From Candidatus Thermosaccharophagus tengchongensis (lineage in GTDB: Bacteria; Armatimonadota; Fervidibacteria; Fervidibacterales; Thermosaccharophagaceae), in NCBI GenBank assembly GCA_032161105.1, contig JAVHTD010000005.1: a stretch of 64,000 nucleotides of DNA; one strand, 5' to 3'. Of the stretch, positions 56,251-61,523 are shown piece by piece. The notes under the pieces were generated by a model. The model was not told where the DNA came from, did no database searches, and saw only the letters and a list, made by a program, of their open reading frames with translations. A program made the position numbers and the translations under genes. Positions within the stretch are counted from its first letter, which is position 1; every line of letters begins with the position of its first letter.

Positions 56251-56279
56251 AACTGGTGTTCAACGAGAGCCAGTTTTTT
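56251..56279 (+). terminator. Putative intrinsic terminator/attenuator in the galU leader
   Basis: AACTGG...CCAGTT stem running into a T tract, about 20 nt before the galU ATG. Confidence 0.5.
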
Positions 56280-56298
56280 GACGAGGGAGTTGAGAGGG

Positions 56299-57147
56299 AT
56301 GGTTGAGAGGGGCGTTATTTTGGCAGCTGGGCGTGGAACAAGGTTACACCCCGTTACAAAGACGCAGCCAAAGGAAATGGTCCCAGTTGGCAGGAAGCCA
56401 GCAATTGAATATATCGTTGAGGAATTAGCGCAAGCTGGTATCGCAGACATCCTCATAGTGACGGGGAAACAGAAGTCTTCATTGGAAGCATATTTTGATG
56501 ATGGTGTCCCGCCCAAATACGACTCGTCGGTAAATGGCGCTCGCATTTACTTTGTAAGGCAACCTCAACCGCTTGGCACAGGCGATGCGGTTAAGCGTGC
56601 GGTTGGTTGGACAAACGATAAACCGTTCGTCGTTGCGATGGGAGACTGCATAATTTGGTCAAGCAGCCGTGACAACATTACTCAAGAACTCATTGAAGTT
56701 CACGAACGATACAATGCTGCAGCAACAATCGCGGTTGAATTGGTGAGCAAACAGGAGACAAACAAATACGGCGTAGTCAGCGTTAAAGGACATGGACGAA
56801 TAGCGCGGTTGACGGGCATTGTTGAAAAGCCACCGCCAGAGAAAGCTCCAAGCAGACTCGCCATTGCTGGAAGGTATGTGTTTGACCCGATTATCTATGA
56901 TGCATTGAACGAGGTTGAGGTTTGCAATGAAGGTGAGTTGGGCATAACCGATGCGATCGCCGTATTAGTGAACAAGGGTTTTCCGGTTTATTGCGTCAGG
57001 CTTAAGAGAGGACAAGTTCGGATGGATGTCGGAAACTTTGAGGGTTACTTCAAAGCGTTCATTTGGGCTGCAATTAACGATAAGGAACATGGTGGCTTGA
57101 TCGCTACCTTCATCCGACGGATACTCAATTCTACCAGACAGGTTTGA
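56299..57147 (+). CDS. galU: UTP-glucose-1-phosphate uridylyltransferase-like nucleotidyltransferase
   Basis: ILAAGRGTRL.P.TK.QPKEM, KPAIEYIVEE, VRQ.QPLGTGDAV, VEKP, GRYVF. Confidence 0.8.
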   Translation: MVERGVILAAGRGTRLHPVTKTQPKEMVPVGRKPAIEYIVEELAQAGIADILIVTGKQKSSLEAYFDDGVPPKYDSSVNGARIYFVRQPQPLGTGDAVKRAVGWTNDKPFVVAMGDCIIWSSSRDNITQELIEVHERYNAAATIAVELVSKQETNKYGVVSVKGHGRIARLTGIVEKPPPEKAPSRLAIAGRYVFDPIIYDALNEVEVCNEGELGITDAIAVLVNKGFPVYCVRLKRGQVRMDVGNFEGYFKAFIWAAINDKEHGGLIATFIRRILNSTRQV

Positions 57148-57205
57148 AGCATGATCTTCTGATGCATGTCAATACCGCTTGCGACTTTCCAAATTGCCAA
57201 ATCGC

Positions 57206-57276
57206 TGCTAAAATGGAATATAGAAGCGCAAGCTAAAGCTTGCGCACAAAAATAAAAAAATCAACACAGGGAGGTG
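57206..57276 (+). promoter_or_regulatory. Extended -10 promoter, 5' hairpin, A-rich tract and strong SD of the GyrA-CTD mini-gene
   Basis: TGcTAAAAT 57206-14; GCGCAAGC-TAAA-GCTTGCGC 57226-45; A-rich tract; GGGAGGTG SD. Confidence 0.55.
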
Positions 57277-57282
57277 TGAGCG

Positions 57283-57585
57283 ATGGAGGCAAAGTATGTG
57301 CTTGTCGTCACGAAGAATGGCTACGCAAAGCGAGTGCCCATAGAGGATGTGCGTGTCCGTAAGCGCCCTGCAAAGGGTGTTTCCGGAGTTGACCTTGCTG
57401 AAGGTGATACGCTCATTGCAGCACTGCCGGTTGGCGAGGGTGGTGAGATTGTCGTCGCAACAGTGCAAGGGCGCGTTGTCAGACTTAGGTTGGAAGAAAT
57501 CAAGACCGCATCGCGCTCCGCAAAAGGCTCTCGCTTGATGGTGCTTGAGGAGGGCGACTCTATAGCCAGTGTTGCTCTCATATAG
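57283..57585 (+). CDS. Stand-alone DNA gyrase A C-terminal beta-pinwheel repeat protein (2 blades)
   Basis: Two roughly 50-aa repeats: VLVVTKNGYAKRV..EDVRVRKRPAKGV...LAEGDTLIAA and IVVATVQGRVVRL..EEIKTASRSAKGS.LMVLEEGDSIASV. Confidence 0.85.
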   Translation: MEAKYVLVVTKNGYAKRVPIEDVRVRKRPAKGVSGVDLAEGDTLIAALPVGEGGEIVVATVQGRVVRLRLEEIKTASRSAKGSRLMVLEEGDSIASVALI

Positions 57586-57640
57586 TAGACACAAGCTGCC
57601 AAATGGAAGTGTAGGGGAACATTCAGCTGCAATTAAAAGT

Positions 57641-57680
57641 GCAAGCGTCGGGTTAGGATACCCGACGCTTTTGCTATTTT
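57641..57680 (+). terminator. Intrinsic terminator after the GyrA-CTD mini-gene
   Basis: AAGCGTCGGGT / ACCCGACGCTT 11-bp stem followed by TTGCTATTTT. Confidence 0.75.
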
Positions 57681-57730
57681 AGGCTCTATTCTGTGGAAAG
57701 GTATTCAGTGATGCATCGGAGGTAGGGGAT

Positions 57731-57755
57731 AAAAAGCCCCTACGGGTGGCTTTTT
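57731..57755 (-). terminator. Possibly bidirectional terminator after the SNF2/YqhG-like operon
   Basis: AAAAAGCC-CCTACGGGT-GGCTTTTT directly at the stop codon. Confidence 0.65.
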
Positions 57756-59667
57756 AGCTCCATTTCTTCAGGTGGCGTAAGAGCCATAGCGTGCTTAATT
57801 GCTTCGTTAAAATTGTTTTGCCAGAGCCATCGGCAACAACGAGCAAGCCGTTCATCCCGTCACGCCACAGATAAATTGCCCTGTATTGCGTCGCAATAAA
57901 ACGGCAGTTTTTCCCCTTTAAATCGTGTTTTGGCATTGGCTGTGGAAGCAATGATGGTGGTAGTTTGCGCTCCAGCGATTTGAGCAAATTAATGCATAAG
58001 CTGCACATTGTTTTCCCTTTCAAGCACGAAAAGCAGTATCTTTGCTCGCAAAGTATGCATTTGCTACTGCACAGGTGGCAAACAGTTGCCCCACAAATGC
58101 CGCACTGCGTGACATGTTTCGGGCAAACTATTTTAGCGCATGATTGACAATAAACGACATGTTCGCTGCAGAGGGTAGTTGAACAACAGTTGGCTCTAAA
58201 AGCGTGCATTGTGCAAATATTTGAACCGCAACTTGAGCAAATATTTCTGCATTTCGCGCAAATTATTTGCCCACATGTTGAACACACTGAGCCGTCCTCA
58301 GCGCAGACAGACTTGCCACAGGTGGAGCATCTGTGAATTCTCTCACTGTTTTGTTGCAAACAATCATTACAAATTGCCTTATCACACACAGTGCAGATAA
58401 TGGCATCATTGGCACATACAATCTTTCCACATATGTAGCATTCAGCTGAACACATCTTACAGATTCCTCTCCCGCAAAACTCACATTTTGCGCTGTGTGG
58501 CTCGCAAATTCGCTTGCCGCAAATTTCGCACACCATAAAGCATTCCTTGCAAACAGGCAGATTGCAAATTTCGCAAAAGCCCTCAATGCAACCTCTGCAG
58601 TATGCTCTGCCACATGTTGAGCATTCCAAAATGCAATCGCTACACACAGCGTGTTTACATGCGCAAAGGTTTACAAGGCTCATTTGTGAGGCACAACTGG
58701 CACATGTTGGGAGAGCGAAAGTGCCATCATAAAGGTTGTGGTAAGCCTTGAAGGACAGTTGATGTGAGTCCTGCACCACAGTAAACTTGAATTCAGCCAC
58801 TGGAACGCTAATTTCAGCGATACCCACAACATGAATTGAGACGAAAGGTTGACGCCTTTGCGCTTCCTCTTCCATCCTCTCATTCCTCTCATCAATCAAC
58901 CTTTCCATTTCGTGCCAAAATTGCCTGCTATTTCCCGCTTTGATGGCAGCTTCTCCGAACAGGCTGGAGTAATAGCTCGCAATGCGCATAAGTTCGGCTT
59001 TTGAGCGCTCACGCGCGGTTTTGGTCAACCCAGAAAGCCAATCTGATAGCAAACTTTCGTGCCTCTCTTTGAGCAATTCAAGGAGCTTTCTCAGAAGCGA
59101 ACGGTTATACGATGGTTTTGCTGGTTTGGCGTCAAAAAGAATTCTGTCCACCCTGTGAGTGACATCCTCAACAAATCCGTTTTCAAGCACCATAAAGCTT
59201 TTTAGCGCGCCTTTTTCGTATGCTGGCGTGCAAGATAATGAGAGACTGACAAGTAAACCACGCAACTTTGCCCTCCTTCTCTTGACCGAGATAAGCTTGC
59301 AATTCCCGAAGCGCAAATTCGGCTCCGTTGGCTTTTCAACCTCGGGCAATTCAATGGCGATATGCAATGCAGCGGACTTTAGCCACTCGTGGACGCGATG
59401 GAAAAGTCGACTTCCGGGAGAAAATAGCAGGGCACCTTGAACAGCTTCGCACGCATCCTTTTCAAACACGACGATGAGCTCTTCACTGTCCCATTCAAAC
59501 GGGGAACCTTCAGGCAACACGATTTGCAGCAATTTCCCTCTATCTATCACCTTTGCACCGATGGACTTGAAAAATTGGCGGCATAAAAAACGAAGCCATG
59601 ATTCCAAATCATTGGCTGTGGTCGCATTACACACTGTATCCCGATCCAATCGCTCAAATTGCCGCAT
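57754..59667 (-). CDS. YqhG-like protein fused to a long tandem Cys-rich zinc-finger array
   Basis: N-terminal half resembles B. subtilis YqhG from memory (FF, PGSRLFH, AELMRIASYY, PFVSIHVVG); C-terminal half is CxxC-x4-Cxx[C/H/D] repeats; lies directly downstream of a YqhH-like helicase. Confidence 0.7.
   Translation of the reverse strand: MRQFERLDRDTVCNATTANDLESWLRFLCRQFFKSIGAKVIDRGKLLQIVLPEGSPFEWDSEELIVVFEKDACEAVQGALLFSPGSRLFHRVHEWLKSAALHIAIELPEVEKPTEPNLRFGNCKLISVKRRRAKLRGLLVSLSLSCTPAYEKGALKSFMVLENGFVEDVTHRVDRILFDAKPAKPSYNRSLLRKLLELLKERHESLLSDWLSGLTKTARERSKAELMRIASYYSSLFGEAAIKAGNSRQFWHEMERLIDERNERMEEEAQRRQPFVSIHVVGIAEISVPVAEFKFTVVQDSHQLSFKAYHNLYDGTFALPTCASCASQMSLVNLCACKHAVCSDCILECSTCGRAYCRGCIEGFCEICNLPVCKECFMVCEICGKRICEPHSAKCEFCGRGICKMCSAECYICGKIVCANDAIICTVCDKAICNDCLQQNSERIHRCSTCGKSVCAEDGSVCSTCGQIICAKCRNICSSCGSNICTMHAFRANCCSTTLCSEHVVYCQSCAKIVCPKHVTQCGICGATVCHLCSSKCILCEQRYCFSCLKGKTMCSLCINLLKSLERKLPPSLLPQPMPKHDLKGKNCRFIATQYRAIYLWRDGMNGLLVVADGSGKTILTKQLSTLWLLRHLKKWS
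57994..58704 (-). repeat. About 13 tandem 15-aa protein repeats C-x2-C-x4-C-x2-[C/H/D]-x3
   Basis: e.g. CEICNLPVCKECFMV, CEICGKRICEPHSAK, CEFCGRGICKMCSAE, CSTCGQIICAKCRNI, CQSCAKIVCPKHVTQ. Confidence 0.9.
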
Positions 59668-59720
59668 TTTTATCCCCCGCCGAGGGCACAACTTCGGCGA
59701 TTAAACACATCCGCTCATCA

Positions 59721-61523
59721 TCAGCTTTGCCTTATGAGCTCCCAAAGCATCTGGTTTGCCTGCCTTATGCGCTCGTAACGCTCCGCTGCCCTCTGAATAA
59801 GTTTCCCAATTTGTGAAAGGCGCTCTTTTTCCTCATCTGGCGTCTCGCTCTGCATGATTGCTTCTGCAACAAGCCGTTCAATGCTCTCTTCAAGGTGTGC
59901 GATACCGAGCATTAGCTCAAGTTCGCCAACCGTCATCTCAAACAAGCCGATCTTCGTTATTAGCAACTCAAGTATGCGCTCTTCAACTGTGTGTTCTGTT
60001 GCCAAGTTTACAACGAACACGGGCTTATCCTGTCCCAACCTGTGAACACGCCCGATGCGCTGCTCAAGGCGCATAGGATTCCAAGGTAGGTCAAAATTGA
60101 TCACCACTCTGCAGAACTGTAAGTTTCGCCCTTCGGCTCCTGACTCCGTGCTTATCATTATCCTCGCGCTTTCTCTGAACCTCTCAACAGCCCTGTCCTT
60201 TGCCCTTTCGCTCATGCTCCCATGATACAGGACGACTTCCTCACCGCGTTTTTCAAGGGCTTCCTTGAGCAACTCCATACTCGCGATGTAATCGGTGAAT
60301 ATGAGCACCTTCTCCTCAATTGCGTTCACAAGTTGTGCGGTGTGCTCAACCTTTGCGCATAGCGGTGTCGCCCTCGCAAGCTCATAAAATTCAGCCAGCC
60401 GTTCCCTTATCTCGTCCGGATATTCATCACACACCATCTTTAGCAAAGTCCTTTCCACCGCACGGGGCGTGCTGCAAAGTTCCTTTTGAAGCAATATGAG
60501 CGTAAGCTTCAAATGCCTTTCCTTCCCGGACGACTTGCTGAGCCGCTTATAGCTCTGCCTCAAAAAAGTCGTCATCTCTTCATACAAGCGAAGTTCTGGC
60601 GGAGTGAGTGAGATGTAATGTGTTGTAGCGTATCTCGGTGGAAGCATTATTCCAACTTCGTCCCTATGATGCCGTATCATCACCGATGAGATCAACCGGC
60701 GCAGCTCCCCAACATTCTTTGGCATCCTCGGATCATCAGCCATAACATACCGCCTTTTGAAGCTCTGCAGTGTTCCAAGCTGACCCGGCTTTATCAGGGT
60801 CACAAGGTTGTAAAGTTCAAGCAGGTTGTTCTGAATAGGAGTTGCGGTTAGAAGCAGAGTGTAGCGCTTTCGTATCTTGCGGCAGAAGCGATGGGCAAGC
60901 GTTGAGCTGTTCCTAAGTTTGTGGGCTTCATCAATTATGAGCAAGTCAAATTCACGCCCATGTATGGCGCTGCTATGAGGCTCGCGCTTTGCCAGGTCAA
61001 TTGATCCTATTACGCGCTCATGCGAGAACCAATCATCCTTTCGCCGGGCTATGGTGAATGTCTCCCCAAACTTCTCAAGCATCTCATGACGCCATTGGTA
61101 GGTTAATGAAGCCGGCACGAGTATGAGCACACTTTTAACAAGTCCCCTCACGATCAGCTCTTTCATCACCAACCCGGCTTCAATTGTTTTGCCCAGACCG
61201 ACATCATCGGCGAGTAAAGCACACCCACCCATTTCGTTCAACACTCTTAAGGCGGTTTCAACTTGGTGCGGGAAGTGAGAAATGCGCACTTGACCCCAGC
61301 ATTGCAACTCCTCAAAGGATTGCATGGCACGAAGCTGCTCAGCCATCAGCAACAGAAAGTGGGCTTCATTTGATGGGATAGAGCACTCCGAAGCAGTGAA
61401 GTCGGGTATGCGCCACTCAACGATTGGGGTAAAATCCAGGAACTTTTCCGCCACTTTTTCCGGGGACATCCACTCGCTATCATCATCCAGCTTTTCATGC
61501 TTGTAAAGTTCAGCCTTTGGCAT
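59721..61523 (-). CDS. SNF2-family helicase/translocase (YqhH-like)
   Basis: LADDVGLGKT, IIDEAH, LLTATP, GRNLQFC, FDLPWNPMRLEQRIGRVHRLGQ. Confidence 0.9.
   Translation of the reverse strand: MPKAELYKHEKLDDDSEWMSPEKVAEKFLDFTPIVEWRIPDFTASECSIPSNEAHFLLLMAEQLRAMQSFEELQCWGQVRISHFPHQVETALRVLNEMGGCALLADDVGLGKTIEAGLVMKELIVRGLVKSVLILVPASLTYQWRHEMLEKFGETFTIARRKDDWFSHERVIGSIDLAKREPHSSAIHGREFDLLIIDEAHKLRNSSTLAHRFCRKIRKRYTLLLTATPIQNNLLELYNLVTLIKPGQLGTLQSFKRRYVMADDPRMPKNVGELRRLISSVMIRHHRDEVGIMLPPRYATTHYISLTPPELRLYEEMTTFLRQSYKRLSKSSGKERHLKLTLILLQKELCSTPRAVERTLLKMVCDEYPDEIRERLAEFYELARATPLCAKVEHTAQLVNAIEEKVLIFTDYIASMELLKEALEKRGEEVVLYHGSMSERAKDRAVERFRESARIMISTESGAEGRNLQFCRVVINFDLPWNPMRLEQRIGRVHRLGQDKPVFVVNLATEHTVEERILELLITKIGLFEMTVGELELMLGIAHLEESIERLVAEAIMQSETPDEEKERLSQIGKLIQRAAERYERIRQANQMLWELIRQS

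Follow-up and report, generated by a model that had tools for sequence, protein, structure and literature searches.

A small two-blade gyrase-tail protein encoded by its own gene family in Armatimonadota is predicted to assemble into a six-blade ring

The 64,000-nucleotide stretch of Candidatus Thermosaccharophagus tengchongensis DNA analysed here (the window) contains, at 57283-57585 on the + strand, a functional gene that is transcribed on its own, the product of which (100 amino acids, 10.6 kDa, pI 9.45) is made of two blades of the type that builds the C-terminal tail of the DNA gyrase subunit GyrA. The coding sequence is supported by Pfam, dN/dS, orthologues, and an AF2 model. The gene is under purifying selection, and its family is composed of two-blade proteins, roughly 96-104 amino acids long, from several Armatimonadota lineages. 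The family and the gyrase tail are paralogues, and the family is no recently detached part of that tail. The chances are judged about even that the mini-protein is a trimeric six-blade pinwheel that would bind and bend DNA; the ring is predicted by modelling, and its DNA binding and cellular role are proposed.

Through its tail, gyrase wraps DNA and sets the sign of supercoiling. To our knowledge, a free form of this tail was hitherto known solely in Borrelia, whose gyrA encodes it internally. The gene described here shows that one third of this domain has a separate gene family, which is selected across several Armatimonadota lineages and includes hyperthermophile relatives possessing both gyrase and reverse gyrase. 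At present, the family is mislabelled as "gyrase subunit A" or "hypothetical". If the trimeric ring is true, it would be the first natural pinwheel assembled from subunits, with a bearing on the evolution of repeat toroids, and it would add a small protein of a new type to the architectural DNA-binding proteins.

The first-pass annotation of this DNA described a 100-amino-acid open reading frame made of two gyrase-A pinwheel blades, and the frame was found with the sequence that it had quoted. Pfam placed PF03989 (DNA_gyraseA_C) in two stretches of the mini-protein (E 1.8e-28), and the score of 98.1 bits against a cut-off of 27 excludes a chance match. PF03989 is the sole Pfam domain, and the breakage-reunion domain PF00521 is absent. 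Against the NCBIfam gyrA models (TIGR01063 / NF004043), the mini-protein reached 67 bits, the cut-offs being 877 and 902, and its alignment was confined to model positions 699-797 of 800. A PADLOC search gave no match for the mini-protein. Blade 1 (residues 5-50; 57295..57432, + strand) carries the basic loop R24-V-R-K-R-P-A-K-G32, and blade 2 (residues about 55-99; 57445..57579, + strand) carries the basic loop K74-T-A-S-R-S-A-K-G82. R28 of the first loop and R78 of the second are invariant in the family.

These two loops had been described as resembling the GyrA box, which is the motif QRRGGKG in blade 1 of GyrA. The basic loops RKRPAKG and ASRSAKG are present, but each represents the ordinary basic beta2-beta3 loop common to every PF03989 blade and not specifically a GyrA box. 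RKRPAKG is identical to the GyrA box of Mycobacterium tuberculosis, QKRGGKG, at four of seven residues. The counterpart of the box reads RRRG(T/A)KG in members from the sister family, Candidatus Fervidibacter, and QGRGGGG in members of the type found in family f25, and blade 1 of the GyrA encoded by this genome carries QGRGGKG. The motif has no discriminating power because it is also found in blade 5 of GyrA.

The mini-gene is accompanied by expression signals of its own. An extended -10, a 5' hairpin, an A-rich tract, a strong Shine-Dalgarno sequence, and an 11-bp terminator had been claimed, and all five were located. The promoter-like site at 57186..57214 (+ strand) consists of TTTCCA, a 17-nt spacer, and TAAAAT, with 9 of 12 matches, and TG at 57206-57207 makes it an extended -10. 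Taken by itself this site is weak, because shuffled sequences give about as many (0.8 expected, one found). The stretch GCTAAAAT in the -10 region is invariant in all four genomes of the genus. The leader hairpin at 57226..57245 (+ strand) has an 8-bp stem, GCGCAAGC/GCTTGCGC, and the loop TAAA, with a z of -3.8 for the fold of the leader. It is kept in two of the four genus genomes, that of the window (G000) and G003, in which one pair is changed on both sides (G-C to A-T), and it is deleted in G001 and G002. It is no known RNA element, since Rfam gave zero matches on 57100-57760. The A-rich leader tract follows at 57246..57268 (+ strand), with a core, AAAATAAA, that is invariant in 4/4 genus genomes. 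The Shine-Dalgarno sequence GGGAGGTG at 57269..57276 (+ strand) lies 6 nt 5' of the ATG, and the pattern GGG.GGTG is shared by the same four genomes. The intrinsic terminator at 57643..57680 (+ strand; z -3.2) has an 11-pair stem at 57643-57670, seven of its pairs being G-C, a 6-nt loop, and the tail TTGCTATTTT. Like the hairpin, it is found in 2/4 genus genomes, being kept in G003 and missing from G001 and G002. The last two genomes (loci L011 and L012) contain a tandem duplicate of TTGACGCTAAAAT upstream of the mini-gene. In both, which lack the 5' hairpin, this duplicate yields the promoter-like arrangement TTGACG-17-TAAAAT.

Environmental sequence data also contain the gene. The window stretch occurs in 17 hot-spring metagenome runs from 11 studies. 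A metatranscriptome run yielded one 415-nt contig on 57282-57696, which spans the open reading frame and the 3' UTR; this evidence is one assembled contig, its source strain is 97% identical, and an RNA library may contain DNA. This contig differs from the window at 12 positions, of which 11 are coding and 10 of these synonymous, the exception being G53S. Assembled RNA contigs give no transcript start, end, or level. The neighbouring genes had no contig in the same run, a missing cover that proves nothing. Run X19 gave merely two short pieces, both outside the open reading frame.

The mini-gene had been presented as a single odd gene. It is instead one member of a sizeable family that extends across several Armatimonadota lineages. 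An orthologue of 100-101 amino acids is present in all three other genomes of the genus Candidatus Thermosaccharophagus, with 77-88% identity and shared gene order, and an orthologue with about 40% identity is present in 20 of 20 genomes of the sister family Candidatus Fervidibacter. Homologues of the same size were thus present in every relative searched in the order. Among the matches listed from a sample of 401 Armatimonadota genomes, the high-scoring form (E <= 1e-28) is limited to the order of the window, where it occurs in 24/24 genomes; the phylum table lists the best 150 of 444 matches, and claims are restricted to families that were searched separately. In family f25, a two-blade gene of 97-99 amino acids was found in 13 of 15 genomes. 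Another order of Armatimonadota has a form of about 101 amino acids in 46/61 genomes, which are distributed by family as f32 13/16, f20 9/15, f14 7/7, f24 13/14, f46 4/4, f44 0/4, and f48 0/1. The f25 form and the form of the other order have two PF03989 blades each and score 108.4 and 87.7 bits, respectively.

The size of the family was also followed with profiles. A short-protein profile built from 13 members of three clades was run against targets of 52-182 amino acids and gave 574 clusters at E <= 1e-12. Among the best 120 of these clusters, 77 were 96-104 amino acids long and all 77 were Met-initiated, two were 105-140 amino acids long, and 41 exceeded 140 amino acids and resembled C-terminal fragments of GyrA. 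The first-pass annotation had proposed a search for short PF03989 proteins, and this search recovered two-blade proteins of the same size in several Armatimonadota lineages. In the ESM Atlas, clusters of 101-amino-acid PF03989 proteins have 144 and 99 members and are commonest in Armatimonadota. The short members are labelled "hypothetical protein" or, automatically, "DNA gyrase subunit A".

A pattern scan with the profile of the order covered 185,579 species, one genome per species, and 80 loci were kept. A small frame was found in 17 of the 80 loci, with a length of 100-125 amino acids in 16 and 208 amino acids in one; 15 of these loci are titled Armatimonadota, Fervidibacter, or Thermosaccharophagus, and two "uncultured bacterium". 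In the other 63 loci, the frame remains open to the edge of the locus (more than 300 codons in 60), and these represent GyrA of other phyla. A profile search of 1.84 billion representatives returned 10,217 matches. The best 150 of them were nearly all long GyrA proteins with three stretches, and this search says little about the spread of the mini-protein because only two of the listed matches were short (100 and 150 amino acids).

The assembly of the mini-protein was approached by structure prediction. The AF2 monomer model had a mean pLDDT of 85 and a pTM of 0.79 and was weakest at residues 21-40 (pLDDT 69 and 61). The best PDB matches of the model were the GyrA C-terminal domains 1zi0, 5ztj, 4g3n, 3l6v, and 1suu (TMq 0.80-0.88). 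In total, the predicted structure matched 18 GyrA/ParC chains at E <= 7.3e-4, with ParC tails scoring lower. When three copies were modelled, all three runs gave an ipSAE of 0.89, whereas the three controls gave 0.00-0.01. In the calibration, which used two copies and not the three at which the mini-protein was modelled, the ipSAE mark was reached by 20 of 30 proteins with a solved one-chain pair and 1 of 23 with a solved single chain. The three runs had at least 98% of their contacts in common, with a partner pLDDT of at least 89. Each modelled copy contacts both others through residues 3-49 against residues 55-100 of the next, forming a closed head-to-tail ring, and loop 23-36, which is uncertain in the monomer model, sits in the modelled interface. 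The proposal that three two-blade copies could build a six-blade pinwheel is supported at the level of the model only (ipSAE 0.89 against 0.01).

According to the proposed mechanism, three subunits would join head to tail, with blade 2 of one placed against blade 1 of the next, and the long loop of blade 1 would pack on the neighbouring subunit. The result would be a closed six-blade pinwheel resembling the tail of GyrA.

A different assembly is unlikely, although it has a real share of the probability. In such a case, the ring would be an artefact of the predictor, and the protein would exist as a monomer, four-blade dimer, eight-blade tetramer, or filament that binds nucleic acid, possibly RNA, or another ligand. 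The modelling was carried out at three copies alone, and resemblance to solved structures can be enough for a high score. The score of the ring may reflect memory, because the interface mimics the way in which blades touch each other within solved GyrA tails. The AF2 monomer reaches a pTM of 0.79 by itself. Designed or cut two-bladed propellers can also deviate from the parent ring, as described for the homo-pentamers of tachylectin fragments in the accessible text of PMC7734218. However, the known GyrA and ParC tails of the PF03989 repeat, as represented by the PDB matches, have five to six blades, and the modelled contacts are cyclic and consistent over three runs. The same partial source reports that a two-bladed variant of the designed Pizza propeller trimerises and recreates a six-bladed propeller (PMC7734218).

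The proposed binding of DNA by a trimeric ring draws on the charge and the conserved residues of the family. The pI is 9.45 in the window protein, 10.1-11.3 in the sister family, and 10.1 as the median of 62 f25-type members. One member, from genome G306, is not basic and has a net charge of 0 and a pI of 6.1. Ten residues are invariant across three clades, among them K16, R28, and R78. R28 aligns with R766 and R667 of Salmonella Typhi GyrA (5ztj), and the blade-2 arginine R78 aligns with R716, with R712 lying four residues before; this mapping to the window protein is indirect because it was made via an alignment of an f25 member to 5ztj. R667, R716, and R766 belong to the per-blade arginines of S. 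Typhi GyrA, in which mutation of R667 or R716 abolishes DNA binding, and mutation of R612, R766, or R817 lowers it, according to the accessible part of PMC7210945. In the ring, DNA would be bound and bent on the basic rim via R28 and R78 of each subunit, together with nearby lysines and arginines. Such a ring would be an architectural DNA-binding protein that works independently of gyrase, comparable to Gac of Borrelia.

The genomic context in which such a protein would act includes other DNA-organizing proteins. HU is encoded in the genome, so no gap among the nucleoid proteins calls for the mini-protein, and the idea that it replaces a missing HU was rejected. Reverse gyrase is also encoded, with a score of 1112 bits, above the cut-off; the loci recorded are G000:C2:200514-203669, C10:41567-43051, and C24:9-437. 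On C24, a frame of 154 amino acids that lies at the edge of the contig also matches the reverse gyrase model, in its C-terminal part. The genome is that of a thermophile with gyrase and reverse gyrase and without topoisomerase IV, which makes the balance of supercoiling a live issue in a hot-spring organism. Fervidibacter sacchari, a relative available in culture, has a growth range of 65-87.5 deg C, and its RNA-Seq and proteome tables cover 97.4% of genes, as stated in the accessible part of PMC11535203.

These features also bear on a second alternative, to which a minor probability is assigned. The mini-protein, whether or not it forms a ring, may act via protein contacts, for example by modulating gyrase, reverse gyrase, or an SMC complex in trans or by serving as their decoy, much as the ParC tail binds MukB. 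The fold search also matched the ParC C-terminal domain solved with MukB (4mn4), and a pinwheel can therefore offer a surface for binding proteins. The presence of gyrase and reverse gyrase without topoisomerase IV and the non-basic G306 member are compatible with this explanation. On the other hand, it is the counterparts of GyrA's DNA-binding loop arginines that are invariant in every clade, the members are for the most part strongly basic, and a search for a conserved neighbour or co-occurring partner gene found none.

The preferred reading of a DNA-binding trimer has a more far-reaching form, which is considered quite improbable. The protein would be a natural obligate homo-oligomeric beta-pinwheel, representing a surviving or re-created two-blade stage on the way to the gyrase tail. 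Its symmetric, all-basic ring would wrap DNA for a full turn and constrain writhe as a small bacterial DNA-spooling particle independent of topoisomerase.

Several results establish that the mini-gene is independent of gyrA. The source assembly (2.74 Mb, 44 contigs) is 97% complete. The genome has a single PF00521 gene, located on contig C1; it encodes an 823-amino-acid GyrA in which PF03989 matches six times. The mini-gene lies on C5. A check of the gyrA and parC tails of the genome thus found GyrA complete with six blades and ParC absent, there being no second PF00521 gene. The mini-gene is therefore not a tail that became detached from a truncated GyrA or ParC. The tails of all 11 Armatimonadota GyrA proteins examined divide into three two-blade units. 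The dN/dS of the mini-gene is 0.02-0.21 over six pairs within the genus and 0.02-0.06 in three sister-family pairs with unsaturated dS, three further pairs being without dS. The start and end points are constant in 17 aligned members of three clades: at most eight residues precede the first strand, and no residue follows the last one. The claim that the gene is no gyrA fragment is accordingly upheld by the complete six-bladed GyrA of the genome, the dN/dS values, and the same-size orthologues throughout the order.

The origin of the family was addressed with a maximum-likelihood tree that combined 33 two-blade units of GyrA with 17 mini-proteins and was based on about 100 columns, on which the family may be either ancient or fast-evolving. 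GyrA blade pairs 1-2, 3-4, and 5-6 formed one clade each (100/100, 100/99, and 90/95, respectively). All 17 mini-proteins fell outside the three GyrA blade-pair clades, in three clusters of which the deep order is not settled. This placement indicates that they did not originate recently from a gyrA copy in these lineages. A single origin of the 17 mini-proteins is compatible with the data (p-AU 0.217), and a clade of mini-proteins with blades 5-6 is also compatible (p-AU 0.367).

That the mini-gene is what remains of a decaying second copy of gyrA or parC, or an artefact of gene calling, is next to impossible and is refuted by the conservation and selection data: look-alike artefacts do exist, since several entries of 131-143 amino acids start with a Met that is internal to a GyrA blade (MGR...) and 41 of the best 120 short matches are GyrA fragments longer than 140 amino acids, but the mini-gene has identical boundaries in 17 aligned members of three clades, a dN/dS of 0.02-0.21, an orthologue in 24/24 genomes of the order among the matches listed, its own promoter-like site, Shine-Dalgarno sequence, and terminator, topoisomerase sequence on neither side, and a product that falls outside the GyrA blade-pair clades. 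Three of the look-alikes, P0195, P0214, and P0237 (131-143 amino acids), which lie on long contigs and resembled independent mini-proteins, were rejected as such on account of their internal-Met start (MGR...) and the acidic tail of GyrA. They are probably truncated gene calls and can be confused with mini-proteins in a census.

Among known systems, the GyrA C-terminal domain shares with the mini-protein the PF03989 repeat, the predicted blade fold (TMq 0.80-0.88), the basic beta2-beta3 loops, and the aligned loop arginines. The GyrA tail consists of six blades in about 300 amino acids, whereas the mini-protein has two blades in 100 amino acids. Unlike the GyrA tail, the mini-protein has no breakage-reunion domain and no acidic tail, is encoded at a separate locus, and falls outside the GyrA blade-pair clades.

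The second system for comparison is Gac of Borrelia, described in the first-pass annotation as an HU-like protein. It is a free gyrase-tail-type protein produced apart from gyrase, as is the mini-protein. The accessible text of PMC10127594 describes Gac of Borrelia burgdorferi as a free 35-kDa GyrA tail that binds DNA, represses ospC, and arises from a promoter and a start internal to gyrA; this agrees with the first-pass annotation, in which Borrelia was cited as making the free domain from within gyrA. Gac is a complete six-blade domain in one 35-kDa chain, whereas the mini-protein has two blades in 10.6 kDa. Gac is encoded inside gyrA, whereas the mini-gene lies on C5 between an NTP-transferase gene and a Cys-rich open reading frame, with gyrA on C1.

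Two-blade subunits that form a toroid are represented in nature by the Ralstonia lectin RSL. Both RSL and the two-bladed Pizza variant (Pizza2) resemble the mini-protein in having a two-blade chain that trimerises to six blades, which for the mini-protein is a prediction of the model. They are beta-propellers that bind sugars or nothing, whereas the mini-protein is a beta-pinwheel. The accessible part of a survey of repeat toroids that includes pinwheels gives zero highly repetitive pinwheel families (PMC9218822). In the literature outside subscription journals, no paper was found on a stand-alone, two-blade, or oligomeric natural pinwheel.

The surroundings of the mini-gene are consistent with the statement that no topoisomerase lies on either side, as none was found among the flanking genes in the window. 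The upstream neighbour is an NTP_transferase gene at 56278-57147 (+ strand). Downstream, on the - strand, a 645-amino-acid Cys-rich open reading frame without a Pfam match is followed by a SNF2 helicase. The Cys-rich frame (57754-59691, - strand) is abundant in paired cysteines and has no Pfam or PADLOC match. The SNF2-family helicase beside it (59721-61523, - strand) has its best PADLOC matches among BrxH/DrmD-type helicases. This pair also adjoins the mini-gene in all three other genomes of the genus, and the two genes may form a two-gene module. In addition, a 128-amino-acid antisense frame (57208-57594, - strand) overlaps the entire mini-gene and is probably its shadow frame.

The gene had been described as monocistronic. 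It is a separate unit in the window, but in Fervidibacter it is part of a tight gene cluster. The order of this cluster is a TPR gene, a Pyr_redox_2 (pyridine-nucleotide-disulphide) oxidoreductase, two receiver-only response regulators, the mini-gene, and a DapB-like dehydrogenase, all on the same strand and overlapping or separated by a few bases. An example is found at L026 4001-8202 (genome G007), and the cluster occurs likewise at L025, L027, L029, L031, and L032. No neighbour genes common to the clades were found, and the neighbourhoods revealed no tie to DNA metabolism. The GyrA open frames of several Fervidibacter genomes are 1266-1320 amino acids long (G004:C14, G005:C4, G008:C2, G017:C224, and G019:C552), against 818-886 amino acids in other relatives. 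This size suggests an insertion such as an intein.
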